Notes under the pieces: model-generated
The model's input: the letters and a program-made list of their open reading frames with translations, nothing else
Database searches by the model: none
Told to the model about the DNA's origin: nothing
Origin: a virus
IMG/VR virus record: IMGVR_UViG_3300045988_139374
Coordinates: 128,001 to 192,000 of that record
DNA: 64,000 nucleotides
Strand: one strand, 5' to 3'
In this document: positions 30,978 through 52,600 of the stretch, one piece after another
Position numbering within the stretch: the first letter of the stretch is position 1
Layout of the letters: each line of letters begins with the position of its first letter
Translations under genes and position numbers: made by a program

Positions 30978-31967
30978 ATGACAAATGTAGAGATGATCTT
31001 AAAATTAATGGAACCAGAGCTCGATACTATTCAACTAGCTAAATTGAAGAACGTGCTTGACACAATCTTAAGAACATCAAGAAACGTCCTACCAAATGAA
31101 GAATTGATAGAACGATTCAAACAACAGAAGAGCTTAGTAGGATTGAAACCATCTTCATTAAATGGATATGTAACAGAGGTTAGAGCAATGGCAAGATACT
31201 ATAATGATAAAAGCTATTGCGATATTACTACTGCTGATATGAAGGATTATCTTGCTTATATGGTTAAAGCAAGAAATCTTCAAGCTGCTACATTACAGAC
31301 TAAGATTAGAGCTATTAGCTCTTTCTATGAATTCTTAGTAAATGAAGAATTTATTGATAAGAATCCTACTAATAAGATTGAAAGAGTCTTGTGTGAAAAG
31401 AAGATCAAGAAAGCTTTCTCTAATGCTGAGATGGATGCTATGAGAGCAGAATGCTTAACAAAGAGAGATAGAGCATTCTTTGAGTTCCTTTATTCTACTG
31501 GAACTAGACTTGCAGAAGTCATTGCCCTTAATGTAAAGGATATCAATTTCTCAGAAGGAGAAGTTATTGTCTTCGGTAAAGGACATAAGGAAAGAGTTGT
31601 TTATCTAAGTAACATTTGCATGAAATATTTACAAGAATACTTAGAAGAACGATATGCTCAACCAGATGAACCTTTATTTACACACTTGACAAATGGTCAT
31701 AGATTGACTCCTAGAGCAGCAGAATTAATTCTTAAAGATATTGGCGATAGAGTAGGAGTAGAAAATGTGCATCCTCACCGATTCCGTAGAACTTGTGCTA
31801 CTCACTTGATGGACAGAGGAATGCCTGTTGAACAGATTCGAGAAGTACTCGGTCACGCCAAGTTAGAGACTACTATGATTTATTGTAATGTGAATAGCAG
31901 TAAAGTTAAAGCTAGTTTTAAAGAAGCATTTAATAGAGATACATATTTTAATGATGTAAATATTTGA
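30978..31967 (+). CDS. tyrosine recombinase (XerC/D / Rci-like); candidate invertase of the fibre cassette locus
   Basis: SAM-like N-domain. Catalytic signature TGTRLAEV (R), GKGHKERVV (K), HPHRFRRT (HxxR), LGHAKLETTMIY (H..Y). Confidence 0.8.
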   Translation: MTNVEMILKLMEPELDTIQLAKLKNVLDTILRTSRNVLPNEELIERFKQQKSLVGLKPSSLNGYVTEVRAMARYYNDKSYCDITTADMKDYLAYMVKARNLQAATLQTKIRAISSFYEFLVNEEFIDKNPTNKIERVLCEKKIKKAFSNAEMDAMRAECLTKRDRAFFEFLYSTGTRLAEVIALNVKDINFSEGEVIVFGKGHKERVVYLSNICMKYLQEYLEERYAQPDEPLFTHLTNGHRLTPRAAELILKDIGDRVGVENVHPHRFRRTCATHLMDRGMPVEQIREVLGHAKLETTMIYCNVNSSKVKASFKEAFNRDTYFNDVNI

Positions 31968-33324: not shown

Positions 33325-33394
33325 CAAAAAGTAGATTAAAATTCAACTTCATAGTAATCCATATTGTGATAATGGTAGAATGGGGGTTAAAATA

Positions 33395-34218
33395 ATGGCT
33401 ACAATTAGGCAAATTAAAGTTAAAGATACATTGTATGATATTTCACCGTCTCCTAGTGGTACGCTTGATACCACTACTAAAGATAATGCATTTGCTTCTA
33501 GTGATGTTGCTCAAGCAAGTGCAACTTCTTGGACTGATGTAGCTGCTCTTGCTGCAACTGAAACTAACAAGAGCATGTTCACAAAAGCTACTCAGATGAT
33601 GAAAAATACCAGATACCTATATAATATTATTGGTACTGGTTTTAGTACTTCTAGTACTATTAAGAAAGCTATTGATGGAAAAGCAGCATCTAATCATAGT
33701 CATGATCTGAGTGCTATGATCAATGGACTTTCTGTTGGATCTGCTACTCCTCAAGATGCGGATTATTATGTGTGCCAATATGCGGGGGGGGGAACACCAC
33801 TTCCACATATCATAGAAGGCCGATGACTGCTCTTTGGGATTATATTAAGTCTAAAGGAAATAGTACTTGGCAACCTAAAGGAAGCTATGCTGCTGCAAAC
33901 CATAGTCACAATTATGCAGGATCTGGAAGTGCTGGTGGATCTGCAAATAGTGCAGTAAAGTTGGATACAGCAACTGCTGGTTCTACTACTCAACCTGTAT
34001 ACTTTAGTGGTGGTAAACCTGTAGCAATTGGATATACTATTGCTAAGAGCGTTCCTGCTGATGCTAATTTTAGTAATACTTGGCGTGGAATTCAGAATAA
34101 TCTTACTTCTACAGCAACAGATCAGTCCCTATCTGCTGCTCAGGGTAAAATTTTGAAAGATGCTCTTGATAAAAAGACTGGAGTTAGTGTATCTGGTACC
34201 ACTGTAGTATTTGGATAA
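33395..34218 (+). pseudogene. tail-fibre paralogue A, split into two frames by a G9 tract
   Basis: ORFs 33380..33826 and 33772..34218 overlap at the G-run. One extra G (G10) gives a single product, ..YYVCQYAGGGNTTSTYHRRPMTALWDYIKSK..GTTVVFG*. The N-terminus is homologous to fibre B (FASSDVAQ, RYLYN..GTGFST, IDGKAA.NHSH). Confidence 0.7.
33784..33792 (+). repeat. G9 homopolymer (candidate phase-variation / slippage tract)
   Basis: Counted directly: tgc GGGGGGGGG aac. It is the only long G/C run I found in this AT-rich window. Confidence 0.85.
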
Positions 34219-34238
34219 TAAATATTATAAATAAAATT

Positions 34239-34275
34239 CCCATAGGATTTTTATATCCTATGGGATTCTTTTATA
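34239..34275 (+). terminator. terminator after fibre A (duplicated at 43769)
   Basis: 10-bp stem CCCATAGGAT / ATCCTATGGG followed by ATTCTTTTATA. Confidence 0.6.
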
Positions 34276-34276
34276 A

Positions 34277-34570
34277 TCTGACGCTTCTATTAAGATCAAA
34301 ACAAAGTCTGGAAAATTTTCATATAGTAGCACTTACGGAAGAAATTATACATTTTATGATTATGAAGGAATATTTATTTCTGCATCAATTGACGGTATTG
34401 CATTTAACAATGATAATTATTTGTATAATTTGTATTATCCATCATTATATTCAATTCGTGTTAGTGATAAATATATTATTAAATCTTTCAATATTATAAG
34501 TTCTGATTCAGGAGGAAATAATATTTCTGGTATTGGAGATAATTTAAACATTATTATTTGCTATATTTAA
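34277..34570 (+). other. start-less fibre C-terminal cassette (97 codons)
   Basis: Core TGACGCT at 34279-34285 is preceded by an in-frame TAA. Reads SDASIKIKTKSGKFSYSS..NLNIIICYI*. Contains no Met codon and has no SD. Its own terminator follows. Confidence 0.55.
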
Positions 34571-34577
34571 AATTATT

Positions 34578-34612
34578 CAATAGAGAAATCTCTATTGGTT
34601 TTATTTTTTTTT
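34578..34612 (+). terminator. rho-independent terminator after the cassette
   Basis: 9-bp stem CAATAGAGA / TCTCTATTG followed by a long T-run. Confidence 0.65.
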
Positions 34613-34638
34613 GTAGAATATATTAAAATACAATAATC

Positions 34639-34645
34639 TGACGCT
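34639..34645 (+). repeat. TGACGCT core site with only a stub (TAA-SDAITK*)
   Basis: AATAATCTGACGCTATTACGAAGTAG. Confidence 0.5.
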
Positions 34646-34675
34646 ATTACGAAGTAGTCTGAGAAATCTGCCAAA

Positions 34676-34720
34676 CCTCTATAAAAGGGCCTAAAATGGG
34701 CATTTTAAGAGGGTAAAATC
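34676..34720 (+). repeat. orphan copy of the fibre B leader/promoter-like sequence
   Basis: CTATAAAAGGGCCTAAAATGGGCATTTTAAGAGGGTAAAAT here, versus CTATAAATAGCCCAAAATGGGTAATTTTAAGAAAGGAAAT at 35123-35162 just upstream of the fibre B ATG. Confidence 0.5.
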
Positions 34721-34880
34721 GAGTGATTTTACACTTATTTTCAGTACTAAAAATTCAATTCAAGATAATAAATGTTTGATCAATAATCAATCTTAATTTA
34801 AAATATATAACAATATGGTAATGAAAGATGGTAGAAAAATCTTTTACCTTTAACAGCAGACACACAAACTATCTTTCATA

Positions 34881-35067
34881 CATGAAGCATTCGATTTAAG
34901 ATTTATTGTGAAGACCGCTTTTAAGAGAGTCCCTTGGACTATAAACTGTGAAGACTTCGTTTAAGAAAATCAGATAAATCCATATCCAAGCCATTAAATG
35001 TAGTAGCGTCAGATTAAAATTGTGAAGCCTGCTTATATAGATTTTTGTGAAGACGACGGTTAAGATT
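34881..35067 (+). promoter_or_regulatory. five direct repeats TGTGAAGMC-N-TTTAAGA flanking a core site
   Basis: Copies start at 34881 (CATGAAGCATTCGATTTAAGA), 34907, 34947, 35021 and 35046. The minus-orientation core at 35005-35011 lies between copies 3 and 4. Confidence 0.5.
35005..35011 (-). repeat. TGACGCT core site (minus orientation) with a 24-codon stub
   Basis: The reverse complement reads TAA TCT GAC GCT ACT ACA.. = SDATTFNGLDMDLSDFLKRSLHSL*. Confidence 0.5.
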
Positions 35068-35171
35068 ATTACTCGGTGTGGTCTTTATGATCACCCCGGA
35101 ATTTCTTTTTTAACAAAATATCACTATAAATAGCCCAAAATGGGTAATTTTAAGAAAGGAAATTTAATTTT

Positions 35172-36431
35172 ATGGCTATAATTGATAAAATTAAGGTTGG
35201 TAGCACTACCTATGATGTGTCGCCTTCTGCTTCTGGTACTCTGAACACTACTGGCACTACTAAGTTTGCTTCTAGTGACGTTGCTCAGGGAAATGCAACT
35301 GGCTGGACTAATGTAGATCAGATGACCACTGCTGATAACCATGCTACTCTGTTTACTAAGATCACTCAGATGGCAAAGAACGTCCGCTATCTGTACAATG
35401 TTCTTGGTACTGGCTTCTCCACTGGTTCTACTGTTAAGGGTCAGATTGATGGAAAAGCAGCAGCTAATCACTCTCACAAGGTTGCTCAACTGCCTACTTC
35501 TAGTACTCAAGTTAACTCCAATGACTATATTCCTACTTCTGCTCTGATCTATTCTATGAATCAGACTCTAACTTCGCTAAATGACGCTAGTAATAAACTT
35601 GGAGTCAGGATTTATAATACTAAATATGCAGTTGGAGGTATTCCTACCAAATCCCAATTTGCTGCAACTGACACTGTACAAAGCATTATTATTAAAATGC
35701 TAGGAGATATGGGTCAGAAACCCATTGACTCTTCTACACCTAATACAAGATATAAGTCTCAGAATCTTGGTACTTGGTCTAGTGTTAGTGATGTAGATAA
35801 TTTTCTTTATAGTTGTTGTCATGATACTGGTTATTATGGTGCTACTATTGGTAGTTATGTTACGATTAAAGATGGTGTATATAATAAAGAATGGATTATT
35901 GCTGGTTTTGATTGTGAAAAGAATCATAAAGCTTCCGATGGCAATACAAAGGATAATGGATATGGTATATGCTTAATACCTAAGAAGAGCTTAGGTAATT
36001 ATGTATGGGATTCTAATTCTATTATAAATGGATACAACGGATCTGAAATGCATAAGTCTACATTACCTGTAGTTGCGAATAATCTTAGAAAAGTATTAGG
36101 AAATCATCTTGTACAGCGTAATGTCCTTCTGAGTAATGCTGTAGATTCTAACTATTATGCTAAAGGCTATTTTTGGACTACTGCATATTGTACTCTTATG
36201 AGTACAGGACAAGTAACTGGTACATTTGCTTCTAATAGAAACAAGTATGATGATGGAGAAGCTAATTATAAACTTCCTTTGTTTAATTATGAAATATGGA
36301 GTTTTGATACCTGGGCCTGGTTGCGAGGGCTATTCGGCTACGGTGTCTATGGCCTTACCACTTCTGGTGGTTCTGGTTATGACATCTGTTACGTTAGTCA
36401 CGGTCTTCGCCCGCTCATTTATATTAGGTAA
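35172..36431 (+). CDS. tail-fibre paralogue B: constant N-terminal part, NDAS junction, and a C-terminal receptor-binding domain ending in the DGR variable region
   Basis: The N-terminal ~105 aa are homologous to fibre A. The in-frame core is at 35582-35588 (LNDASNK). The C-terminus WAWLRGLFGYGVYGLTTSGGSGYDICYVSHGLRPLIYIR* matches TR apart from changes at adenines. Confidence 0.8.
   Translation: MAIIDKIKVGSTTYDVSPSASGTLNTTGTTKFASSDVAQGNATGWTNVDQMTTADNHATLFTKITQMAKNVRYLYNVLGTGFSTGSTVKGQIDGKAAANHSHKVAQLPTSSTQVNSNDYIPTSALIYSMNQTLTSLNDASNKLGVRIYNTKYAVGGIPTKSQFAATDTVQSIIIKMLGDMGQKPIDSSTPNTRYKSQNLGTWSSVSDVDNFLYSCCHDTGYYGATIGSYVTIKDGVYNKEWIIAGFDCEKNHKASDGNTKDNGYGICLIPKKSLGNYVWDSNSIINGYNGSEMHKSTLPVVANNLRKVLGNHLVQRNVLLSNAVDSNYYAKGYFWTTAYCTLMSTGQVTGTFASNRNKYDDGEANYKLPLFNYEIWSFDTWAWLRGLFGYGVYGLTTSGGSGYDICYVSHGLRPLIYIR
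35580..35597 (+). repeat. in-frame core site inside fibre B (putative expression-site crossover)
   Basis: AAT GAC GCT AGT AAT AAA at codons 137-142. Shares AATGACGCT with the cassette heads. Confidence 0.55.
36317..36417 (+). repeat. DGR variable region (VR)
   Basis: 101 nt aligning to TR 37379-37497. There are 12 mismatches, all at TR adenines, plus one 18-nt gap. A GC-rich 3-prime end, GGTCTTCGCCCG, is shared (IMH-like). Confidence 0.85.
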
Positions 36432-36468
36432 TGGAACTAGCCACCTTGTGTGGCTAAGTGGAATTACC
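36427..36468 (+). promoter_or_regulatory. hairpin immediately 3-prime of VR (candidate DGR target-recognition structure and/or terminator)
   Basis: Inner stem TAGCCAC / GTGGCTA nested in outer stem GGTAAT / ATTACC. Overlaps the stop codon. Confidence 0.5.
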
Positions 36469-36537
36469 GTAATATAAATGAAAGGTGAAGGCTTAACGAG
36501 TAAATATATTATTAATATAAAATAAGAGGTGGTTTGT

Positions 36538-37347
36538 GTGTCTGTCGTTAAGGGTAAAAGAAATCAATCTGATGTTGAATATTTTGATTATGCATATAAA
36601 GTTGTGGAGCATATAACTAAATTTCTTTTATCTGATCTTGGGATTAAGAAAACTTATAGAGACTTAAAAGTTTTTACTTATAAATCTCATATGGAGGAAG
36701 CTGATAAAGAAGAATTTGAGCATTTAGTAAATAAGTATGATTTGGAATTGGAAACAGATTTTCCTAATTGGCTAATGTGCTATTATAGAGAAACATTATT
36801 AACAATCATGAGAGATCTAATCAATAATATATCTGCAGCTTATACACTATATCCAAATTCTGTTTATGAATTTAATATCAAGAAACAGTATATTTCTGAT
36901 TCTATAGCTAATTGTTTCGATTTAAAACATCAACTCCAATTAGTAATTAGAATATTTCCAGCAAATATGAAGAAATATATTCCATTTGTAAAAGAAATCG
37001 ATAAGGAAATAGAGCTTCTTAAACAGTGGCGAAAGAACTTTACAGGAATTTCTAAGAAGCATTGCTACAATCAAGATGAAATCGCTAAGAGAGATGCTAT
37101 TAAGAGAGTAAATAAGATTGAAGCAAAGAATGAGCGTAAACTTCAAGTGAACAATAATTTCCTTGTAGAATATATGAAAGCAGTTTACACTCAACAAGTG
37201 CTTATGGATAATCTATATCATACAACCTTCTATTATAATCAGCAAAATCAGTATTGCTCCGAACTGCCTATTGCAGCTTGTACATTCTTTGATCAAAATG
37301 GATATTATATTGGAGATTCTGCTCATGATTTTGTTACAACTAACTAA
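36538..37347 (+). CDS. avd: DGR accessory protein (Avd-like by position; longer than canonical Avd)
   Basis: Lies between the target gene and TR. Helical, basic/acidic composition. AAGAGG lies 8 nt before the in-frame GTG at 36538 (track start GTG 36529). Confidence 0.45.
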   Translation: MSVVKGKRNQSDVEYFDYAYKVVEHITKFLLSDLGIKKTYRDLKVFTYKSHMEEADKEEFEHLVNKYDLELETDFPNWLMCYYRETLLTIMRDLINNISAAYTLYPNSVYEFNIKKQYISDSIANCFDLKHQLQLVIRIFPANMKKYIPFVKEIDKEIELLKQWRKNFTGISKKHCYNQDEIAKRDAIKRVNKIEAKNERKLQVNNNFLVEYMKAVYTQQVLMDNLYHTTFYYNQQNQYCSELPIAACTFFDQNGYYIGDSAHDFVTTN

Positions 37348-37378
37348 ATAGTAAGGTGACTCTCTATAAATAATCTCG

Positions 37379-37497
37379 CTGGTTGCGAGGGCTATACGGC
37401 AACAACAACCTCAACAACAACAATGTCTATGGCCTTACCACTTCTGGTGGTTCTGATTATAACAACTGTAACAATAGTAACGGTCTTCGCCCGATCA
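37379..37497 (+). repeat. DGR template repeat (TR)
   Basis: 119 nt, rich in AAC/AAT codons in the VR frame (LRGLYGNNNLNNNNVYGLTTSGGSDYNNCNNSNGLRPI). Non-coding location upstream of RT. Confidence 0.85.
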
Positions 37498-37651
37498 ACA
37501 GCATCTTGGCAATTTAAGGATCGAAAGATCTGGCCAGGATGTCTGTATGAGGAGGGAGTTCCCTTTCCGAAAGGAAGAAACAATAAAGCTGGCTACGGTT
37601 CTGGCATTACGATGCTGAATCTATTGGGCTGGTATATTTTTTTTTATTTTT

Positions 37652-38938
37652 ATGATTATTGATTTTAGTAATGAAGATTGGGGCGAAAATCCCTGTGAAT
37701 ATACTGAAGGAAAATTAGATTCTATTGCAGATCCAGATAAATTATATCAATCTTATAGAAAAGCTTCTAAACCAATTTATTATAAAGCATCTACTCAAAG
37801 ATATGGATTAAATCTATTATCTAATATTGCTATTGCAAATGAAGCATTAAATAATGGATCTTATAAAATTGGAGATCCATATGAATTTATTCTCACAGAA
37901 CGCGGTAGAATTAGATATGTAAAAGCATTATATATGTTTGATCAAGTAGTGCAGAGATCTTTCAATGATAATGTATTAAATCCTGCTATTGCTAATAAGA
38001 TGATTTATGATAATGGAGCTTGTGTAAAAGGAAAAGGTGTTGCTTTTACAAGAATGAGATTTAAGCAGCATCTACAACAAGCATATTATCAATTTGGATA
38101 TGATGGTTATATAATGATCATCGATTTTTCTAAATATTTTGATAATATTCTTCATCAAGAAGCTTTAAAACAATTCGAACCTCTATTAACGCCAGAAGAA
38201 TACAATTTTCTTAAAATTACTTTTGATACATTCAAACTAGATGTATCTTATATGTCAGATGCAGAATATCTAGAAGCTAGAGATTCTCTGTTTAATCTTC
38301 TAGAATATTCTATGATGGCAAAAGAAAATTTCAAAGGATTAAAGCTTCTTGAAAAGTCTGTTGGAATTGGTAATCAAACTTCTCAAGGAACTGGAATGTA
38401 CTATCCTCATGAAATAGACAATTATGTGACTATAGTAAGAGGATATGGATTATATGGAAGGCATATGGATGATACATATGTATTTGCTAAAACTAAAGAA
38501 GAATTACAACAACTTCTTGAAGAAATAAAAGAATTGTGTAAGAATCTTGGAATTCATATTAATCTTAAGAAAACTAGAATAGAACCCATCAAGAATACAA
38601 TTTCATATCTTAAAATAAATTATAAAATTATTGAAACTGGAAGAGTATTTGAATTAGTCCCAAATAAAGTATTTAAAAGAGAAAAAGATAAATTAACAAA
38701 ATATAGGGATCTTTGCATTCAATATAAAATGACTGCTATTACAGTTCTTCAATGTTATCTTAGTTGGAGAGGTGTATATAATAAATTTGATTCTAAAAGA
38801 AAAATATATGCACTGGATTGCTATTTTAAAGATCTTTATTGTTTAGGATTTAGAGATACAAATCTATATGATTTGTTGCATTTCTATATGCGTGTAGAAA
38901 GAGAGAAATTAAATAACTATCCAGTCATGAAATATTAA
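37652..38938 (+). CDS. DGR reverse transcriptase
   Basis: IGNQTSQ (the DGR-RT hallmark) and YGRHMDDTYVF (YxDD box). No SD before the ATG. Confidence 0.85.
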   Translation: MIIDFSNEDWGENPCEYTEGKLDSIADPDKLYQSYRKASKPIYYKASTQRYGLNLLSNIAIANEALNNGSYKIGDPYEFILTERGRIRYVKALYMFDQVVQRSFNDNVLNPAIANKMIYDNGACVKGKGVAFTRMRFKQHLQQAYYQFGYDGYIMIIDFSKYFDNILHQEALKQFEPLLTPEEYNFLKITFDTFKLDVSYMSDAEYLEARDSLFNLLEYSMMAKENFKGLKLLEKSVGIGNQTSQGTGMYYPHEIDNYVTIVRGYGLYGRHMDDTYVFAKTKEELQQLLEEIKELCKNLGIHINLKKTRIEPIKNTISYLKINYKIIETGRVFELVPNKVFKREKDKLTKYRDLCIQYKMTAITVLQCYLSWRGVYNKFDSKRKIYALDCYFKDLYCLGFRDTNLYDLLHFYMRVEREKLNNYPVMKY

Positions 38939-38943
38939 AATAC

Positions 38944-38980
38944 TAGGTAAGGAATTTATTTCCTTACCTATTTTATTTTT
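38944..38980 (+). terminator. rho-independent terminator
   Basis: 10-bp stem TAGGTAAGGA / TCCTTACCTA followed by TTTTATTTTT. Confidence 0.7.
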
Positions 38981-41463: not shown

Positions 41464-41591
41464 TGCTAAATGCGCAATAGTAGTAGCCAGCATTTCTGAA
41501 TGAATGCTATACTCTATCATTGATATTATCAGTATATAGGCAGTACTGATGATATAAGTCAATCTCCTATTTTATAAATCTCTTAAAGAGG

Positions 41592-41634
41592 GCCGGTAGA
41601 GATTTGATTCTCTACCGGCTTTTCTTTTTTTTTT
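41592..41634 (+). terminator. rho-independent terminator
   Basis: 10-bp stem GCCGGTAGAG / CTCTACCGGC followed by a long T-run. Confidence 0.75.
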
Positions 41635-41641
41635 ATTTATT

Positions 41642-41875
41642 TTAGATATAAAATATTCTTACATTATATTTTACTATAGAAATAAGTTGTTTATTTAGAT
41701 CGATATTAAATGTAACGATTACATAATTTAAATAATCAGGGACGTAATATATGGCAACATATGGAAATCCAGAGATTGAATTTATGTCTGCACATATTGC
41801 AGATATTACAATTATATTGTTAAATGATTTCATTTCTGAAATATACATATCTCTTTGCTTAATAGAAGCGTCATT
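41642..41875 (-). other. start-less fibre cassette (77 codons), last of the minus-strand array
   Basis: Core at 41867-41873. Reads NDASIKQRDMYISEMK..NVRIFYI*. Confidence 0.55.
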
Positions 41876-42168
41876 TACATATCAAAATACCAACATTTGC
41901 ATGTAATAGGATTTTTACCATCGGTATATATTTCATTATCTGCAAGCCTTCCGACTTTTGTCATATAAACTTCACAGTTAGTAACTTTAAATGTACCATC
42001 ATCAAAATATCCACTGGCAGCTATTACAGGAAATGTATAATATCCAGCATTTCCTTTTGGATATAGTATTGGCATTGCTTGAATTATATATGCTTTAGAT
42101 AAGTACCCGCATGATGCATATTCACTATATGGAACTTTACAAGTATTAGTTTTAAGAGAAGCGTCATT
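41875..42168 (-). other. start-less fibre cassette (97 codons)
   Basis: Core at 42160-42166. Reads NDASLKTNTCKVPYSEY..CKCWYFDM*. Confidence 0.55.
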
Positions 42169-42496
42169 GTGCTTTACCTTTAATATAAAATATATTAATG
42201 ATGACTTCTGCATTTGATAAAGATGTTTTGTTAAAAGGCATAATTTTTTCATGCAATGTATCAATACCTAGTATATATAATTTTCTGCCAGTTGTCCAAA
42301 TACCAGTATTTGGATCTTGTGTTGAATCGATACTTGTAGATAGGAAAGTTAAATACATTCTAACAGTATTACTACAATATGCATAGTGAGCTATAATATC
42401 ATCATCAGTAACAGAAATATCTGTATCAAGAATAAAATAAGAAATATCATTCTTTACTCTACCTTGCTTCATTTTAATTTTAGTAGAAGCGTCATT
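42164..42496 (-). other. start-less fibre cassette (110 codons)
   Basis: Core at 42488-42494. Reads NDASTKIKMKQGRVKND..NIFYIKGKAQ*. Its TGA stop lies inside the next core. Confidence 0.55.
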
Positions 42497-42506
42497 TATA
42501 TTGGTA

Positions 42507-42767
42507 TTATAGATTTTTTAAATAAAATACAATTAATCTTCTAATAGATGAATGCATTGTTAAAGTATTATTAGGGAATCCTCTTATATCTATATAATAA
42601 CATGAATCATCTTCATCATACCATATATCTACATATTCAGCTTGCTCAGTTTTACCTGTTATTTTAGATTCAATATAAAGTCCAACAATTGGAATTCCTA
42701 AATAAAAAGCTTGTTTACTACTTTTTGGAAGAGTTAATTCTATATTATATATAATAGAAGCGTCATT
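42507..42767 (-). other. start-less fibre cassette (86 codons)
   Basis: Core at 42759-42765. Reads NDASIIYNIELTLPKSS..LIVFYLKNL*. Confidence 0.55.
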
Positions 42768-43065
42768 TACCAAAATAATAATATATTTTTATATTAAATG
42801 CTGTATTTACTTTTATTAATTTATAATCATTAATTTCAAACAATTGAATTATAGAATAAAAACTACCCTTTTCATATATTCCTTGATACATTGCTGGAAA
42901 TATATACTTAGGAGAATAATTGATAGGAAATAATGTTTGATTATACGTGGTACTATACACAGCAAATATTATATATGCTGATAGCCCAGATGGCACATCA
43001 TATCTTTCTTTATATATTCCATTCTCATCAGTTGTTACATCTTTACTCTTAATAGAAGCGTCATT
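42763..43065 (-). other. start-less fibre cassette (100 codons)
   Basis: Core at 43057-43063. Reads NDASIKSKDVTTDENGIYK..NIKIYYYFGK*. Its TGA stop lies inside the next core. Confidence 0.55.
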
Positions 43066-43384
43066 CACTAATATAATAGTATATTTTAATACCAATTTTA
43101 TCTGATGGCTTTATAAGCTGTCCATTGTCATTTATTTTATATACTTGAATTACAATATATCTATTAACAGCATCTGCAATTTTTCCATATGAGCCAGAAT
43201 ATATTGCAGGAATTATATATATTGGAACATTCATTTGATTTACTAGATTTCCAGTCATTGTGGATGTATTACTATATATCGCTAAAATATTTTTATGAGA
43301 ACTAATTCCAAATACGCCTAATGCAATTTTATATTCTCCACTGCTATCAGTTTCCACTATTTCATGTTTAATAGAAGCGTCAGA
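43061..43384 (-). other. start-less fibre cassette (107 codons)
   Basis: Core at 43376-43382. Reads SDASIKHEIVETDSSGEYK..GIKIYYYISE*, paralogous to the 42763 cassette. Its TGA stop lies inside the next core. Confidence 0.55.
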
Positions 43385-43388
43385 CTTG

Positions 43389-43673
43389 TTAAATATAATA
43401 TATAATAATTGAAACATTACGTCCATTACGAGATGCCGTGCTGCCATTAATATCTGATGTATATACAAGAATAGTTCTAATTACCCATTCAACATCTGTA
43501 GTTTTAAATATTTGAATTAATGGAATAGATGAACTGGTATTTACAGCTGGATTTATGTATGCATTTATTAAAATTCCATTAGTAAATTTATATAAGTAAT
43601 CATTGTCATTTAAACCATTTGAATATTTTCTAGGATATACGGTATCAGTTTTAATCTTAATAGAAGCGTCAAA
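43389..43673 (-). other. start-less fibre cassette (94 codons), first of the minus-strand array
   Basis: Core at 43665-43671, with TAA directly 5-prime. Reads FDASIKIKTDTVYPRKYS..NVSIIIYYI*. It contains no Met codon, so it is absent from the ORF track. I translated it by hand and found no internal stop. Confidence 0.55.
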
Positions 43674-43680
43674 TTATTAG

Positions 43681-43704
43681 ATATTAAAATACTAGGTAAG
43701 GAAT
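43681..43704 (+). repeat. 24-nt exact copy of the RT gene 3-prime end plus half of its terminator (recombination scar)
   Basis: ATATTAAAATACTAGGTAAGGAAT occurs at both 38932-38955 and 43681-43704. Confidence 0.7.
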
Positions 43705-43724
43705 CTACTAATGTTACAGTCGAT

Positions 43725-43805
43725 GGTACCACTATAGTATTTGGATAATAAATATTATAAATAAAATTCCCATAGGATTTTTATATCCTATGGGATTCTT
43801 TTATA
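43725..43805 (+). repeat. 81-nt copy of the fibre A 3-prime end plus terminator (compare 34195-34275)
   Basis: One mismatch across 81 nt. Preceded by the remnant coding sequence ..TNVTVDGTTIVFG*. An 8-nt insertion GTCTTATA lies before the core site. Confidence 0.75.
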
Positions 43806-43814
43806 GTCTTATAA

Positions 43815-44393
43815 TCTGACGCTACTAAGAATTTTGGAAATGGAAGTCTAATTAAATCTATTACTTATGAAGGATCCTATACTACAAGTACTGTTTATTC
43901 ATATCAAATCGATGATTGGCTAAAAGTAAATTGTACTTCTACTAATCCTATTAGAACAAAAATATCTAGATTATATGATATTGTATTTTTCTTCGATACA
44001 GATGTTGAGGAGTTAGCTATAAATATGCTTAGACATTTATTTGCTGTTGGAGCTGACTATAAGTATCTTGGTGGATTTATACTCATGAAGAAAATATCAA
44101 ATGAATGGACACCTGGTAGATCTCTTTCTCAGGCTAGCTTTGATTATTTTTTAGGCCCATATATAGAATATGGATTGGCACCTAAACAATTTGTTAAATA
44201 TCGAGTAATTAGAGAGAATAATGCATATTATATAGATAGATATGTTGATACATCAGAGAAAAACTACAAAAATGATAATATTTCCTATCAGATATTATAT
44301 AGGAATACAGAACCGCATAAATATTTAATATATGGAATAGATTTTGAAGATCATGTATCTGATGTTGTGAATAGTAAGCCAGTAGATCAGTAA
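43815..44393 (+). other. start-less fibre cassette (192 codons)
   Basis: Core at 43817-43823, preceded by an in-frame TAA. Reads SDATKNFGNGSLIKSITYEG.. and continues into track ORF 44025..44393 in the same frame with no intervening stop (checked codon by codon). Confidence 0.55.
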
Positions 44394-44404
44394 ATATAGT
44401 ATAC

Positions 44405-44679
44405 AATGACACTTCTAAAATAAAAACAATATACATGGATTAGGTAATGTAAAAACAACAACTAGGTATATAGATAATCAATATGGTAGTTATTATGAAA
44501 AATGCTATTATCTAGCTTCTGGAATTATGGTTGGGTATATGCTTGATCAAAGTACAATAGGATTATTATCTACATTCTTAACACAAGTAGGTAAATATAT
44601 AATGGCATTTAGATATGATAACACTGCAAAATCAATGAATACGATAGAGTGCACTATATCTATGCTTTATTATATTTAA
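44405..44679 (+). pseudogene. decayed fibre cassette (mutated core TGACACT plus a frameshift)
   Basis: Reads NDTSKIKTIYMD then TAG. An 80-codon frame (GLGNVKTTTRYIDNQYG..ISMLYYI*) continues in a different frame and has the family-typical ..YYI* ending. Confidence 0.45.
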
Positions 44680-44919: not shown

Positions 44920-45001
44920 GCAGGAATGGTGGAATGGCAGACACGCTAGACTTAGGATCTAGTTCTTCGGAGTGAGGGTTCAAGTCCCTTTTCCTGCACC
45001 A
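44920..45001 (+). tRNA. trnL: tRNA-Leu (anticodon UAG), class II with a long variable arm, encoded CCA
   Basis: Acceptor GCAGGAA / TTCCTGC. Anticodon stem CTAGA / TCTAG with loop CTTAGGA. T-arm GAGGG TTCAAGT CCCTT. 3-prime ACCA. Confidence 0.85.
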
Positions 45002-45033
45002 TGTAGAATTATCTCCCCTAATTCTACTCATAA

Positions 45034-45110
45034 GGGCTATTAGCTTAGTTGGTCAGAGCTTCTGGCTCATAACCGGATGGTCGTAGGTTCGAGTCCTACA
45101 TGGCCCACCA
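45034..45110 (+). tRNA. trnM: tRNA with CAU anticodon (elongator Met or lysidine-modified Ile2), encoded CCA
   Basis: Acceptor GGGCTAT / ATGGCCC. Anticodon stem TCTGG / CCGGA with loop CTCATAA. T-arm GTAGG TTCGAGT CCTAC. The 1-72 pair is G-C, so it is not initiator-like. Confidence 0.8.
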
Positions 45111-46050
45111 TTAGAGATTAAGATACCACACACGCTAACGCTATTTTAATCTCTTTTCTTTCTTGTGTATAGAGGGTGGAAGAAACACAAGATAGAGATT
45201 CAAGTTCATTTCTTTCTTTCTTCTTGAATCTCGAAGCGAGGTTCGATTCATTAGTTCCGCAACCTAATGATGGTGCAGTACGATTCTGCAGGGGATAAAT
45301 AGATTTGGCCACTCCTTTCAATTTATTCCTAACGCTTAGATCCATTTGATCTAGCCTGCGTGCCTATTTGATCGGTTACGTAAAGATTCCTGACGGGAAC
45401 TACGTTTAATTTGAAATACAATAGCCGCGTATAAAAATTGTATTTATTATTTCTTTTCTTTCTGATCAATAGAATTAAATTATAAATGCAATGGAGGATT
45501 AGATGGCCCAAATAATGACTACTGGGAGAATGTAGTAAGTCTCGAAAGTATCTACCGAGACGGGAGAATATAATGTGGCTCATATAACTATTCCTTCTGT
45601 AGGCTAGTTATTATTGCCACATTATGAATGGACATAGATACTCTTGTAAATTCTAAGGAGGCTAAGTTATACTTGTTACTACTGATCATAGTGGGTATAA
45701 CTTTATTAATGGTGGCCGCAGATGTAAAGAATTTACTGGATCTAATGTAAATCATCTAGCATTAGATTAAGAAAATAATTATGTATTTATATTGTGCGAT
45801 ATAAATATCTTAATTAAGATGAGCTGTGGGTATGAGATTGGATTATTGACCCTCTATACTACCATCTAAAGCATCCTTTTGGTAGTGAAGTTAGATGCCT
45901 TTTTCTGGTATTGGTTTTCGAAGGAAGAATAGATGTGCTCGGGCAGAACGAGCGGAATAACCTATACCCTCCTAACTAAGATTGTGGTGGACATTTATCA
46001 AGTTCGAGCCTTGAATCTTGGACAATAAGAATGATTCTATTTGAGAAAAA
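45111..46050 (+). ncRNA. candidate large structured ncRNA(s), unclassified
   Basis: About 0.95 kb with no plus-strand ORF of 60 aa or more. Visibly richer in G+C than the flanks. Lies directly 3-prime of two tRNAs. Contains many perfect local stems, e.g. 45113-21/45146-54 (9 bp), 45195-204/45223-32 (10 bp), 45414-22/45437-45 (9 bp), 45570-79/45616-25 (10 bp). T-loop-like GGTTCGATTC and CAAGTTCGAGCCTTG are present. Confidence 0.4.
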
Positions 46051-46672: not shown

Positions 46673-49600
46673 ATGGCTAAGTCTAAAAACAAAGACAACA
46701 ATAAAACTGGCCCTATTGCATATGCCAAAAATGTAGTAAAGTCTGCTAAGTATATTGCTGTTGAGACTGCCAAGGGTGTTAATCCTACACTTACTAGCTA
46801 TATTGCTGATAATGCTTCTGCTGCAAAGGATATGTACAATGCAGCGAAGGATTATAAAGGAACTATTCGTAAGAAGCTAGAAGACTCTATTGGATCTAAA
46901 AATACCGATCAACTTGGACAAATTAAGAAAGATATTTTTAGTGATCTAAAATCTGGTAAATTCTACAATCCTGAACGTGAAGCAGAGTCCATGAACAAAC
47001 TAGCAGAATCTTGGGGAATGACTTCCTTTGATTTTGATATGGATGATGATTTCGATCTAGATTCTGATAATGATGACGATACTGATAGCTCTACTACATC
47101 TTCTAAATCTAATGATATAGATGTAGTTACTGGAGCTATCCATGGTCTTGGAAATCAGATTTCTTATCACCAGCTTATTACTGGTGAGGGAATTGCTGGT
47201 AAGATCGGTGGAGCTAATATCAAGAATACTAGAGCAATGATGACAAATAATAATAGACTCGCTGGAATGTTGAATAATTCCTTGTCTGTTATTAATACTT
47301 CTATTCTTGATCTTCATAAGGATCTAGTAGAACCTCTCAATGGACACATTCAGAATTCTACTAGTTTTTATCAAACAGCTACATCTGAGCTGGCTAAGCA
47401 AACTAGTTATTTGGAGACTATCACTAAACTACTAACAGATAGATTTGCTCCCGTTGCCACTAGTAAAGGTAGTGGAATTAAAGAGACTCCTTGGGAAGCA
47501 GTTATGGGTGGAGATTTGCCGAATCTAGGTAACTGGATTAAGCATGCCAAGAATAAATCAATGGAAGATTCTGGAATGGACTCCCTTGCTGCTATTATGA
47601 ATCCTGAGATGCTGGAGACTTTACTAGGTGCTGGTATGCATTCTCCTATTGCATTGGCAATTACTATGGCTCTTACATCTAAGATTCAAAATGGCCCTAC
47701 CGGTAAAGCTCTAGATAGAACTGTCAATATTTTTAGAGATGGTATGATGAAGGTCGCTGGACAGATTCATAAAGCATCTAAGAATGATGGTATTCTAGGT
47801 ACCATTGCTAGTTTCTTTGACATTACTCCTCATTTTAATCCTAAGATGAATTTCGGTAATTATAATAAGGGACGAGTAGATTGGACTGGTAAGGACTCTA
47901 AAGCACTGAGAGATGTTATTCCTACTTATCTAGCAAATATTGAAGCTTTGCTATCTGGCAGAGAAGCTAAAGTATTTAACTATGAAACTGGTAGATTTAC
48001 ATCTGCAAGTAATGGCTTTAATGAATTTAAGAAATCTAGACAGGCTAATATCGGTAATGCTTCTAAGGGTATGAAGGAAGAACTTCTTCAAGAATTTATC
48101 GATGAAGATAAAGAGAAGTATAAGAATGATGAAAACCATATTGCTTATACTAGAGAATCTAGAGCTGTTAGAAATCTATCTGATGATTATGATAAGATGA
48201 TGTCTCTTATTACTCTAAATCATATTGATCCTTCTAAATTTGATTCTGCTCAGAGTATGCTTACTCTTCTTCGTCAAAGAGGATGGATTAATGATGATCC
48301 TACTAAGGGATTCATTTCTAACAAGAATGCTCGTGCTATTGCTAGACTTATTTTCAAGAAAAAGTCTGGTGTTGGTAAAATGAATAATGCTATCTATTCT
48401 GGACAGATTGCAAATGCTAGATTTGTTGATACTATCAATGAAACTAATCCTATGTTTGCTGCAGTGGCAAATGGATCTGGTATGACTAATACTCACAAAC
48501 TAAAAAGCAATCTAAATAAGAATAGTGCAGATGCTGTTACTATGGCACTTGATGATCATGGTAATAATATTTTCTTCTATCTGCAAGATTATTATAAGCA
48601 AATTAGAGTTATGGTAGACTCTATGTCTGCATCTAACTTTAATTTGTCTACTATCAAGAATGAAATTATTAGTAGATTTAATGGAGGATTTGGTAATACA
48701 GAAAACTCCACTGGAACTTCTGGTAATAGACGCCAGCCTAAGAAGAGAAAAGAATCTTCTAGAGCAAGTAGAGCAGCTGCTGCAGATGCTGGAGCTGGCG
48801 GCTCAGACTCTGGATTTAGATCTCTATATAATTTCAATTACGACGTTCCTAACAATATAGCTCCTGAGATTATTACTCCTGAAATGGCCGAAGCTTCTGC
48901 TGGAGCTTCGGAGAGAGAAGCTGCAATTGAAGATCCTGAAGGAAGAATGGTATATAATTCCTCTACTAAGCGATATGAAGCTCCTAAGGCTTCTTCTAGA
49001 GGATCTTTCCTAAAGTTTAAGGAAAATGCTAAAGATCATAGTATCCTATCTATCATCGTTGATAAATTCAATGATTTTATGGATAATACGCTCTTCGGTA
49101 ATGCGCCTGCTGCATTTAAGCAGAAGATTGACGAAGAAGGTGGTCTGTTCGGATACCTGCAATCTTTGCCCAATAAGATTGCTACAGGTCTACAGGATCT
49201 TCCTGATAAAATTGCAAATAAAACTAGTGAATTATGGAAGAAGTTCCAGGAATCTGATTTTGGCAAGAAATTCATGGAATCTTCTAAGAATATTATTTCT
49301 AGTTTCTTTAAAGATACAGAACAATATGCTGAAAGAAAAGCTCAGGGTACTTTAAAGTATCTATTTAAGAATACTAGATTTGATCTCGATAAGAAAGAAA
49401 AAGAAAACGAAGAGGCAATTAATGGACCTATTGCTCTATTACCTCAACATGCTGAATCTTTAATTCCTGAAGATGCTAATCCTGAAGGATCTTATAGAGG
49501 TGGATTAGTTAATAAATCTGGAATGGTTTCTGTTTCTAAAGGTGAATTGATTGTTCCTGCAAAATATAATCCTCTTTATAATGGTGGATTGTCTGATAAA

Positions 49601-52600
49601 CAGAGAGAACAGATTGAGCATAGAAACTATAGAAACTGGAAAAAGGCTGGTGGCAAGGGTAAGTTCTTTGGATTCTTTGCTGAAGGCGGTACTGTTGGAG
49701 AAGCGGATAATTCTCCAAATCTAACTGATGAACAGGCTAATATTATTCTTAATGGATTTAAGAATAACAAGCCTACTGTAGATATTGCTAATGAAGCTGG
49801 AATTGATGAAAAAGTCATTCAAGACATGAGAGTTGAGTATGAGAAAGATAAACTCAATGCAAGTCTTGAATCTATGAAAAAGAGTTTCAAGAAATTTGCT
49901 AAAGTAGCATCTAAAGTTGGCAATGCTGTTAAGAATCAAGCAAAGAAAACTTCCGTGTATCAAACTATTGAGCACGGAGTTAAATATGTATATGAAAGAG
50001 CAAAGCAATCTTCTGACTATATTTTTGGCGATTCTGATGTATATAAAAATATCAAGAAAACTGGAAATGAAGTTGTAAAGGCTGCTAAAGCTGATCTTCC
50101 TAAGGTTGCTGCTGGTGGTGCACTGGGTGCACTTGCAGGTGCTGCTCTAACTGGATCTGGATTGGGTCTAGTTGGTGGTATGGCCATTGGTGCTGGTAGC
50201 ATTATTCTTAAGAATTCTGATACTCTATCTGAAGCACTGTTTGGTAAATTTGATGAAAATGATAAGCTAGTTAAGAAGGGAATCTTACCTCCTAAACTTT
50301 CTAAATTCATTACTGATAAACTTCCAGATGCTGCTAAAGCTGGTGCTATTGGTGCAACGCTTGGTACCTTTGGATTAGCTCCTGGAGGTATCATGGGAGG
50401 CTTTGTACTTGGAGCTGGACTTGATCTAGTTTCTAATACAAATGCTTTCCAAAACATTATGTTTGGACCTAAAGGTGCAGATGGAGAAAGACACGGTGGC
50501 ATCGCTGGATCTATCAAGAATAGAGTTGTTGATCCTCTTATTGCATTTACTGAAAATGGAATGGAGAAGATCAAGAATTTCTTTACTACTAATTTTGTAG
50601 ATCCTGTAAAGAGATTTGTTAATCCTCTAATAGACTATGTCAAGGGTAAAGCTAAGAGTATTGTATCAGATTTTATTGATAGTGCTAAAGATATTGTCAA
50701 GCGCACTATCGGTGAAAAGTTTGATATTCTATTTGGACCTCTTGTAAATCTTGCTAAAGGATTAGGTAAGAAAGCCTTTAGACTAGCAAAGGGTGTAGTT
50801 ACTGCTCCTTTTAAAGCTCTTGGTGGTGTTGGTGATGCTCTGCAAAGACACAATATCAATGCAGGCTATACTAGACTATCTGTTGAAGAACGTGAATATT
50901 GGCGCAAAGAGCATAATAAGAATAAATTCTTTGGACTCAGAGGAAAGAAGATTAAAGAATCTGCTCTTGATAAGTGGGAACTCAGCCTTGATGAGAATAA
51001 GAGAGGCGATCTCATTAGAGAAGCAAATGATTATCTTAATTCTCCTACTGAGCTAAAGAATCAGAAGCATAAAGCTCGTCAGGAATTAAGGGATAAGATC
51101 ACTGCTTCTATGCCTAATGCTGGACTTGGTGAAGATCATGCACTAGGTAAAAAACTCAATAGACTGATGAATAGTGAAGACGTTGTAAAAAATAATGACT
51201 ACACTAAAGTCAGAAAATTTGTCGAAGGGCTGAATATCAGTGATGAAGACAAAGAGAAACTTAAGAAGTCTATTATTGATACAACTGCTAAAACAACTAA
51301 AATTACTGATAAGATTGCTAATTTTGATGTCAATAAAGAGCAATTCTTTAGAGAACAAGGTCTAGATATCAATAACATGTCTAGTAAAGAACTCAGAAGA
51401 ATGAGAAATCAGCTAGGTATTGATGTCAAGAATGAAGATGAGAAAGCAAAAGCTAAATCTGAGGATAGACTCAAAGAGCTCAAAGAAAAGGATGAAAAGG
51501 CTAAGAAGCTAGCAGAAGAAAAGCGTATGAATATGATTGGCAATATTGTCGATTATGTTTCCATTATCGCTGGATACGTTGAAACTCTAATGGGTAAGAC
51601 TAAATCTTCTGTTACTGGAAAGCCTTTTGAATCTCCTAGTGAGAATTTTGAGACCTCTCTAATGACTAATGAACAAGCTAAAGCTGAAGAAGCTAAATCT
51701 AGAATTGGTAAAGATACAGCAATAGATGCTGAATTTACTGAAGTTAAAGATGATAAGAAGAAGCCTGAAATTGCTATTAATGCAGATGCTATTGATAGAG
51801 TAGTAAATCTTGCTACAAGAGGAGTATCTGTAGCAATAATTGCTAAACGACTCAGTATTTCTGTAGATAAAGTAAAAGAGATTATTGCTAATAATAGAGC
51901 TGCTATTCTTGCTGCTAAAGCTACTGGACAACTAGATGGAGTTGGAAAGGCTGGCGCATCTGTAAAAGATGGTGGTAAGCTTATTGGGAACAATTCTCAA
52001 GATGATGGCGAACAAGGAATCATTACTAAGATAGATGCAGATGGCAATCCTATGCAATACATGCGTAATGCCAAAGGAGAGCTCGTTCTTAATACTGCCG
52101 ATGCTGCTACCAAAACTGCATCTGAAGAAAAGAAAAAGTCTAATGAACTAAGAGATAGATTCTATGGAATGTGGGTCAATGGAGGAATCCTCGGAAAACT
52201 CAAAGATCTACTATCTCCTAAACAGGAAAAAGAAAAGAAGAAAACTCTACTGGATACTATTAAGGAGAAACTTGCCGATGCTGCAGGCGCAGTTGGCGGA
52301 GCAGTTTCGAATTTCTTAGGATCTAGTATCGGAACTTCTCTTACATCTTTCCTTGGATCTCTAGGTAAAGATATTATCACTAATCTTCCTTCTATTCTAG
52401 GAACTGCTGCTACAGTAGCTGGTGCTGTTTACCTTGGTAAGAATGCTGCTGGTACAAATAACGATTCCGGAATGCGTAAAGGAATGGATCCTGAAGAACG
52501 TAAGAAGGAAGTAGAGAATTCCAGCCTCTTTAATAAATTCACTCTTGGCGTAGATTCTCTAGAAACTAGAATTAGTGGCAAAAAGATGACCACCTATGAT

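Follow-up and report, generated by a model that had tools for sequence, protein, structure and literature searches.

A window of 64,000 nucleotides (nt), positions 128,001 to 192,000 of the IMG/VR virus record IMGVR_UViG_3300045988_139374, was analyzed. It belongs to a jumbo phage from human-gut metagenomes with a genome of about 250 kb (about 240-280 kb in its clade) and an RNA polymerase distantly related to those of the jumbo phages phiR1-37, AR9 and PBS1. At 41642-43673 the minus strand carries seven reading frames, here called cassettes c1 to c7, which are arranged head to tail and each open at a short repeat, the core. The seven frames are very probably promoterless, startless alternative C-terminal tip domains of one short tail fibre, switched at the cores. 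Related phages carry the constant front half of the fibre fused at the core to dozens of tips, so the cassettes would form a library for host-range switching. In what follows, handles beginning with P designate proteins and those beginning with L stretches of DNA with which the window was compared.

The array of seven cassettes

Translated from its core as far as the first stop codon, each cassette gave one open frame, with lengths of 94, 107, 100, 86, 110, 97 and 77 codons; these are the same minus-strand frames that an earlier sequence-only reading of this DNA had listed. All of the array cassettes open at ..TGACGCTTCT.., which is translated as (F/S/N)-D-A-S. The spacing between the end of a cassette and the next core was measured as 0-10 nt throughout the array, within the 0-20 nt claimed in that reading, and c2, c3 and c5 are terminated by the TGA within the following core, which accounts for the three such cases it had described. 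The last cassette is followed by a terminator at 41588-41623. The cassettes are:

43389..43673, minus strand: cassette c1, 94 codons, head FDASIK, in-frame start codon absent; 38% identity to the expressed P0039 tip
43061..43384, minus strand: cassette c2, 107 codons, head SDASIK; terminated by the TGA of the c3 core
42763..43065, minus strand: cassette c3, 100 codons, head NDASIK; 37% identity to the P0008 tip
42507..42767, minus strand: cassette c4, 86 codons, head NDASII
42164..42496, minus strand: cassette c5, 110 codons, head NDASTK; 36% identity over 110 amino acids (aa) to the expressed P0003 tip
41875..42168, minus strand: cassette c6, 97 codons, head NDASLK; 45% identity to the P0012 and P0024 tips
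41642..41875, minus strand: cassette c7, 77 codons, head NDASIK; 37% identity to the P0058 tip; the final one in the array

The cassettes do not have the features of genes that are translated on their own. There is no ATG, GTG or TTG in frame in c1, and no Shine-Dalgarno-like motif was found upstream of any in-frame start in the seven cassettes, whereas most real neighbouring genes have one. Inspection of the starts thus agrees with the earlier claim that the cassettes have no Shine-Dalgarno motif or usable start. The same reading had called the open reading frame (ORF) annotation misleading, and the annotated ORFs of 88-121 aa do begin at codons that are out of frame or lie upstream. When generic sigma-70 promoters were sought, 80 sites were returned against 77 expected, a result that is uninformative either way in AT-rich DNA.

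The open frames are nevertheless far from a chance occurrence. A random open run of the same composition averages 10 codons, and the probability of 671 open codons is ~3e-28. In 7/7 cassettes the frame given above had the best codon-usage score of the six possible, though somewhat under that of bona fide genes. The core with at most 3 mismatches occurs in 10 copies in the window, compared with 0.53 expected. The cassettes beginning at 43061 and 42763 (c2 and c3), which had been taken for paralogues, indeed share 43% amino-acid identity. Apart from this pair, the cassettes have no detectable similarity to each other or to the expressed tip beyond the core, and a Pfam search with all cassettes gave no match.

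Expressed fusions in related phages

The fibre gene at 35172-36431 on the plus strand encodes 419 aa, and its N-terminus of 136 codons is followed in the same frame by a core at 35580. This expression-site core reads AAT GAC GCT AGT (NDAS, continuing as NDASNK). When the first 156 residues of the fibre were used as the query, 80 proteins were returned, and at least 61 of these are gut-metagenome proteins of 205-250 aa with an N-terminus 75-97% identical to that of the query. These proteins are alike as far as ..YSMNQTLTSLNDA (..SLNDA) and then continue into wholly different tips of 70-110 aa. Contigs of 220-277 kb encode several of the fusion proteins. When 19 sequences, among them relatives of ~50% identity, were aligned, N137-D138-A139 were the sole invariant columns. 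The sequence-only reading had proposed that the cassettes are silent and have to be relocated beside the fibre N-terminus; fusions of N-terminus and tip, joined at Asn-Asp-Ala, are what the relatives encode. It had also named arrays riddled with stops in relatives as evidence to the contrary, and the relatives' arrays are open.

A total of 111 tips (67 expressed, 44 silent) cluster into 23 families. Expressed relatives were found for six of the seven array cassettes, c4 being the sole exception; its relatives are short ORFs only (P0208-P0211), with 39-48% identity in a nearly full-length alignment. Cassettes c2 and c3 fall into one family with five expressed members, P0008, P0015, P0019, P0021 and P0055. 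At the nucleotide level c6 is 89% identical to a silent plus-strand cassette in L111, and the homologue of c7 in L003 lies in the plus orientation. With the locus as megablast query, no match was obtained among 50,697 phage records, and the only protein-level match of the N-terminus among phage records was a hypothetical protein of Roseburia phage Jekyll.

The core as a DNA site

The possibility was considered that the core is conserved as DNA and not only as the protein motif it encodes. The genome has a strong codon bias, with GAC used for 11% of Asp (GAT 89%), GCT encoding 56% of Ala and TCT 61% of Ser. Despite this bias, GAC-GCT-TCT is present in 40/44 cassette heads, indicating that the core is a DNA element. 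The heads were collected by protein motif alone, so the codon test is not circular. The consensus of the 44 cassettes from eight loci is TAAT[C/A]TGACGCTTCT[A/C]TTAA. The core is ~17-22 bp long; its 7-bp block TGACGCT is invariant and the 10 nt around it are nearly so. Some heads have up to 30 nt in common. An exact 15-mer of the core gave one match in each locus in IMG/VR, mostly chance-like; after a re-scan with a looser pattern four loci proved real.

Structure of the tips and selection on the cassettes

AlphaFold placed the junction of N-terminus and tip at the end of a helix formed by residues 122-138. The P0012 tip, which resembles c6, was modelled as a beta domain with a pLDDT of 84-92, and c3 as an all-beta fold of seven strands with a pLDDT of 71. 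The models suggest that the tips are small all-beta domains; that they probably bind receptors is deduced from their position in the fibre and their variability.

The sequence-only reading had proposed that the frames are kept intact by selection. In homologous cassette pairs that are silent in both genomes, the frames remain open over synonymous divergence (dS) of 0.2-1.1, with ratios of non-synonymous to synonymous change (dN/dS) of 0.34-0.95; dN/dS by itself cannot separate relaxed from diversifying selection. The pattern fits tips that are occasionally expressed and selected for change, but falls short of proof. Decay of cassettes also occurs, as in the cassette at 44407 described below (degenerate core, frameshift) and in the truncated L129 cassette at 4035.

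One silent pair, L112 14898(-) and L029 5891(-), has a dN of 0.104 and a dS of 0.007. The DNA is identical outside three short patches, and all of the patch changes alter the protein. This looks like loop-targeted diversification without a template repeat.

Further cassettes and the expression module

The library in the locus comprises about ten cassettes, more than the seven of the array. The remaining cassettes, the module that carries the fibre N-terminus and the associated repeats are:

34277..34570, plus strand: silent cassette p8, 97 codons, head SDASIK; 73% identity to the expressed P0005 tip
43815..44393, plus strand: silent long cassette cas9, 192 codons, head SDATKN, variant core TGACGCTACTAAGAAT
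44407..44679, plus strand: decayed cassette with degenerate core AATGACACTTCT, its frame broken by a frameshift; homologous to the expressed P0006 tip
34633..35596, plus strand: expression module (0.95 kb, 34633-35588), consisting of left core ATAATCTGACGCTATTACGAAGTAG, leader, N-terminus (35172-35579) and right core AATGACGCTAGTAATAA (NDASNK)
35580..36431, plus strand: currently expressed tip, a C-terminal domain of 283 aa, which a diversity-generating retroelement (DGR) also targets
35001..35019, minus strand: inverted core in the module leader, identical to the core of the 43815 cassette in opposite orientation
34183..34279, plus strand: left 97-nt direct repeat, with the last 12 codons of fibre 1, stop, hairpin CCCATAGGATTTTTATATCCTATGGG and first core
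43713..43809, plus strand: right copy of the 97-nt repeat, 93% identical; orphan 3' end of a long-fibre gene between c1 and cas9

The plus-strand cassettes likewise have expressed relatives, namely P0005 for p8, P0203 for cas9 and P0006 for the relic at 44407. In P0203 the N-terminus is joined to NDASKNFGNGSF.., and a homologue of cas9 is also present in L003. Cassette p8 lies behind the fibre 1 stop codon and hairpin, and a terminator of its own is located at 34577-34598.

The left core of the module reads SDAITK followed by a stop codon, the leader is 515 nt long and the N-terminus has 136 codons. The left and right cores have TGACGCTA in common. The inverted core in the leader is kept in L112, L113 and L114. 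Together with the left core it flanks ~350 bp in a layout like that of an invertible element, and the orientation was the same in 5/5 genomes seen. Other repeats were observed in the leader. Three copies of TGTGAAGAC-N5-TT(T)AAGA lie within 34903-35065, and the motif CCYAAAATGGG..TTTTAAGA occurs twice, at 34690 and 35134, the second copy containing the ribosome-binding site of the fibre gene. These motifs could be accessory sites for a regulator or the recombinase. In addition, 34840-34879 is a 40-nt inverted copy (83% complementary) of 36522-36561, the 5' end of the ORF at 36529, and may be the scar of an earlier rearrangement.

Fibre 1, a second fibre gene at 33380-34218, has its first ~100 residues in common with the 35172 fibre. 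It is split into two overlapping frames by a run of 9 G at 33785-33793. In another assembly of this strain the run is 8 G long, and 10 G, 7 G or a -1 frameshift would be required for an intact frame. In other metagenomes, fibre 1 homologues (P0068-P0074) also stop just past a Gly-rich stretch (GGG or GG) in the homologous position. The G-run could reflect phase variation, programmed slippage or a homopolymer sequencing error. Ribosomal bypass across the fibre 1 stop and hairpin into the cassette at 34277 was ruled out by a TAA immediately before the cassette frame. The hairpin at 34239/43769 was also considered as a lox-like site, but a two-way terminator is the simpler reading.

In the relative L003 an intact long-fibre gene terminates in the 97-nt repeat. 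The region 43669-43809 between c1 and cas9 also holds a fragment like the 3' end of the reverse transcriptase gene with its terminator (38920-38958, 85%), and in the same-species relative L104/L003 an intact long-fibre gene stands in place of the 43669-43809 fragments.

Rearrangements at cores in relatives

The expression module is 94-96% identical in L111 and L112, and the homology stops at each of its cores. Six different sequences adjoin its left end at TGACGCT. Four of the six are upstream flanks that are unrelated to one another (window, L111, L112, L113); in L115 the join is to the end of another fibre N-terminus, and in L114 to the right end of the module itself. Two more left joins are to sequences known elsewhere, in L127 to the flank ahead of a cassette in L112 and in L130 to the fibre 1 hairpin. 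L114 is a MEGAHIT contig of 1085 nt with ends that are identical over exactly 141 nt, and its junction reads AAATGACGCT followed directly by ATTACGAAG. Since the end repeat exactly equals the k-mer size (k = 141), the assembly indicates a putative 944-bp circle or tandem of the module.

L111 and L112 are 94% identical and have the same two flanks, with the module ahead of different cassettes. The cassette behind the module in L112 is silent in L111, where it lies behind three others, and the L111 module is found 2.3 kb further on. L130, which is 97% identical to the window, is without exactly the 360-nt p8 segment, and both breakpoints are in ATAAT(C/A)TGACGCT. In L131 (97.5% identical) the large tip that is expressed in the window is silent in the same position after the recombinase operon; it has no start codon, N-terminus or DGR and begins ..TTTGACGCTTCTAATAAA. 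The large tip is found as a startless silent cassette with a canonical core (..TGACGCTTCTAATAAA) in L131, L133 and L134. L131, L104 and L003 are neighbouring stretches of one contig, and in this genome the terminator of the RNA polymerase beta' gene is followed by three minus-strand cassettes that are unrelated to the seven of the window.

Altogether, breakpoints were precise to the core in at least 7 independent comparisons. The relatives' arrays contain both orientations. One inversion was found (L029, L033), with its breakpoint ~25 nt inside a cassette and off the core, and where same-species relatives differ, it is by segment indels or in where the module lies rather than by clean inversions. 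As judged from the aligned genomes, events between direct cores are directly supported, whereas inversion is suggested by the geometry and the mixed orientations. By the same alignments, relocation of the module appears at least as clearly as movement of cassettes.

Proposed mechanism and alternative explanations

Recombination between two cores would join the N-terminus in frame to a cassette at Asn-Asp-Ala. The joining point would be the end of the predicted neck helix, with the exchange inside the invariant TGACGCT. At present, the module is ahead of the DGR-diversified large tip and c1-c7 are inverted 6-8 kb downstream. Two routes to the expression of c1-c7 can be envisaged. In the first, the DNA from 35.59 kb to the core of the chosen cassette (41.87-43.67 kb) would be inverted. 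In the second, the module would be excised as a circle of ~0.94 kb and reinserted ahead of a cassette. The likeliest enzyme would be the Xer-like tyrosine recombinase of the phage:

30978..31967, plus strand: Xer-like tyrosine recombinase, Pfam Phage_integrase 4e-39; candidate enzyme for the cores

The XerA, XerC and XerD NCBIfam models match this protein with scores under the cut-offs; in PDB, 4a8e is the closest to it. It has core-binding and catalytic domains only and no arm-binding domain. Copies with 91-99% identity are present in 4/4 array-carrying IMG/VR contigs, and in five clade genomes the first core lies 1.3-3.3 kb downstream of the recombinase gene. Between the recombinase and the fibre genes, 32042-33250 encodes a protein of 402 aa with many CxxC pairs and a weak zinc-ribbon match only; the relative L131 has a 395-aa counterpart in this position. 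The CxxC protein might be a recombination accessory factor.

It is also possible, and is proposed here tentatively, that it is not the cassettes that move but the 0.94-kb module of promoter, leader and N-terminus, which would excise as a circle through recombination of its two cores and reinsert at any silent tip, in either orientation. In this phage it would be coupled to a DGR by which any large tip in expression is fine-tuned. Compared with an integron, such a module would be an integron turned inside out.

Several observations weigh against the reading of the array as a library of tips that are switched at the cores; those that also favour a particular rival are given with it in the two paragraphs that follow. 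The module circle is known from the single contig L114, and its junction was absent from the JGI metagenomes searched. The comparison with receptor-binding tips that the sequence-only reading had suggested as a check gave no significant match, since a Foldseek search with two tip models against PDB and BFVD returned nothing with E below 1e-3. The top matches of c3 were the tailspike C-terminal domains 4ru5 and 4y9v, with E values of 0.1-0.4. Moreover, dN/dS was 0.5-0.95 in several cassette pairs, which is near neutral.

The rival that survives best, although it is rather unlikely, is that the library is a fossil in this strain, the module having been locked in front of the DGR tip by mutation of the right side of its core, and the DGR having taken over diversification. 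The seven cassettes would then still be inherited but would be beyond use. The expression-site core of the window is indeed atypical on its right side (AGTAATAA vs TCTATTAA): 3/8 right-arm positions differ, and Ser is encoded by AGT, not TCT. Because of this deviation it may recombine poorly. Furthermore, no rearrangement was found within the strain, as four assemblies from three samples are collinear, their differences being confined to the DGR variable region, a G-run and one SNP (single-nucleotide polymorphism). Exact-protein look-ups for other arrangements of the strain found none. The end of contig L108, 46 nt before the expression-site core, was considered as a sign of heterogeneity and rejected, as its coverage was 3.6x and the end is off the core. 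Since the four assemblies share one arrangement, switching in this strain is deduced rather than seen, and given the atypical right arm as well, the strain may switch rarely or not at all. The decayed cassettes at 44407 and in L129 also fit a fossil library. However, 7/7 array frames and cores are intact, and it is the cassette with the degenerate core, 44407, that is frameshifted. Excision of the module would still be possible because its two cores share TGACGCTA. In addition, same-species relatives differ by whole cassettes, which indicates recent activity.

It is unlikely, too, that the same library is shuffled with no dedicated enzyme, the core serving as microhomology for general recombination during replication or co-infection. 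There is a precedent in T4-type phages (PMC2839356), in which conserved regulatory cassettes flanking modules have been proposed to recombine in this way and to give mini-circles. Other points agree with such shuffling, namely that certain heads are alike over up to 30 nt and that the L029 inversion has its breakpoint within a cassette. The recombinase is conserved beside gyrA in distant relatives, where 62-70% identical homologues in other jumbo phages also follow gyrA with no cores nearby, and the L111-L113 arrays have no integrase within 10 kb. Because of these two findings, the assignment of the recombinase at 30978-31967 as the enzyme that acts on the cores is, on sequence grounds, plausible only. 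On the other hand, an invariant 7-bp block with 10 near-invariant nt, maintained against codon bias, fits a protein-binding site better than microhomology, the breakpoints are precise in the at least 7 comparisons described above, and the recombinase adjoins cores in 5/5 clade genomes examined.

Two other explanations are very improbable. The cassettes could be small proteins translated independently, via cryptic internal starts or translational coupling, as the 88-121 aa ORFs annotated by gene callers would suggest, but the annotated starts are out-of-frame or upstream, c1 is startless, no cassette start has a Shine-Dalgarno motif, and the frames open exactly at the core with homologues that form the C-terminus of 205-250 aa proteins. 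They could also be donors for gene conversion of the vls/pilS type, silent copies that are copied into the expression site while the donors stay put, which would suit a promoterless head-to-tail array with 17-bp boundary repeats on the strand opposite the expressed gene; however, similarity ends at the 5' core (the c2/c3 pair aside), so there is no second homology anchor, and the relatives show reciprocal products (segment presence or absence, module circle) and not patchwork.

The adjacent retroelement and neighbouring genes

The DNA between the expressed fibre and the array contains the DGR, a dCMP deaminase gene and an RNA polymerase beta' fragment. The DGR is complete within 35172-38938, and its target is the expressed fibre tip, with the variable region (VR) at about 36317-36417. 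The template repeat (TR) is at ~37379-37497 and the reverse transcriptase, with the motif IGNQTSQ, at 37652-38938. An unannotated ORF of 272 aa at 36529-37347 occupies the position of a DGR accessory gene. The mismatches between VR and TR are at TR adenines in 8/8 cases. Between the window and L107, which is from the same strain, 6/8 differences are within the VR, at 36376-36394. In a repeat search of the window no array cassette came up as a repeat of the DGR template, and the DGR is a separate system adjacent to the cassette array.

An Rfam scan of 33-46 kb found two tRNAs only, a tRNA-Leu (anticodon TAG) and a tRNA-Met at 44920-45110, directly past the cassette region. A weak, sub-threshold match to RAGATH-36 is at 45271-45404. 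The gene at 46673-56971 encodes a protein of 3432 aa with peptidase C39-like, CHAP and lysozyme domains, which is probably a giant virion-associated cell-wall hydrolase; in one same-strain assembly this gene has a 15-nt deletion (48856-48870).

Comparison with known systems

Tail-fibre tips determine which bacteria a phage infects. In these abundant, uncultured jumbo phages of the human gut, one constant stem is combined with a pool of at least 23 families of interchangeable tips at a defined join of ~20 bp, which offers a testable account of how such phages track changing hosts. The succession of helix, NDA and beta domain would be a natural plug-in site for the engineering of host range. Because the retroelement also diversifies the same fibre gene, coarse switching of cassettes and fine mutagenesis may be combined in one locus. 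If the module reading is true, the locus may use a novel type of site-specific recombination, with a promoter and gene head moving instead of cassettes. No description of this system was found in the literature searched.

By their organization, integrons resemble the locus in having promoterless cassette arrays of one orientation, a circular excised unit and a tyrosine recombinase. A cassette of an integron is a whole gene with a structured attC of 60-140 nt and inserts at attI by a fixed promoter. Here, in contrast, the cassettes are startless gene fragments with a duplex-type core of ~20 bp, the circle is the promoter/N-terminus module, and the spacing of 0-10 nt leaves no room for attC. By model score there is also no IntI-type integrase, as the two integron-integrase models gave the recombinase 100 and 69 bits with cut-offs of 265 and 435 and its best matches were XerA, XerC and XerD, and complete-gene cassettes with attC were not found in the locus.

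The array cassettes are not homologous along their length to the expressed variable part, as the silent copies of vls and pilS are. Nor are they DGR targets, a description that applies to the neighbouring expressed tip.

The vsa locus of Mycoplasma pulmonis (HvsR) has one expression site with promoter, start and 5' end, and many silent genes that are without these elements and begin at an in-frame recombination site. It is a bacterial surface lipoprotein system in which only inversions occur. Its logic is the same as that of the present locus, and there is no sequence relationship.

In the R64/IncI shufflon, the tyrosine recombinase Rci acts at many short asymmetric sites in pilV, each heading an alternative C-terminus. 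Rci carries out inversion only, between inverted sfx sites, and the target is a pilus adhesin. In the locus described here, the sites within the array are mostly direct repeats, deletion and insertion products occur, and the target is a phage fibre.

Min of plasmid p15B, Cin of P1 and Gin of Mu are serine invertases that work with an enhancer and Fis; they perform inversion only, on pairs of convergent segments in which a gene for an assembly chaperone is included. These systems swap the tail-fibre C-terminus onto a constant N-terminus, Min being multi-site (partly summarised in PMC6109161). They differ from the present locus, which has a tyrosine recombinase candidate, head-to-tail arrays and no chaperone genes.

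A shufflon has recently been described in BV01-like Phocaeicola phages. The nearest of the known phage tail-fibre shufflons is Rin of Bifidobacterium prophages (Mavrich et al. 2018, PMC6109161), in which a constant receptor-binding N-terminus is combined with small tandem variable segments. In Rin an 11-bp asymmetric site precedes each segment, the predicted Xer-like tyrosine recombinase is without an arm-binding domain, the constant gene and the recombinase enclose about five segments, and isomers produced by inversion were directly observed (PMC6109161). The two systems share a constant N-terminal segment, dissimilar small tandem C-termini behind short asymmetric repeats and an Xer-like candidate.

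As in a shufflon, a constant N-terminus is joined in frame to alternative C-termini at a short repeat, and the sites are inverted relative to the expression site, the 35580 core being on the plus strand and the seven cassette cores on the minus strand. Coexisting inversion isomers, however, were absent from the four collinear assemblies of the strain, and recombination does not appear to be by inversion only, as shown by the 944-bp circle or tandem, the one-cassette indel and the module that moved within co-oriented arrays. Unlike Rin, the locus has at least 10 cassettes in three groups that are spread across 10 kb and separated by essential genes and a DGR; cores also bound the constant part, which is found in different positions, recombination between direct repeats has left products, the core sequence and proteins are unrelated to those of Rin, and the locus belongs to a jumbo phage of roughly 250 kb. 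The system is set apart from the known shufflons by the scale on which it is built and by being scattered across 10 kb of a jumbo phage, and it is also distinct from them in its head-to-tail arrays of direct sites, the evidence of excision and insertion, the core-bounded module and the coupling to a DGR.

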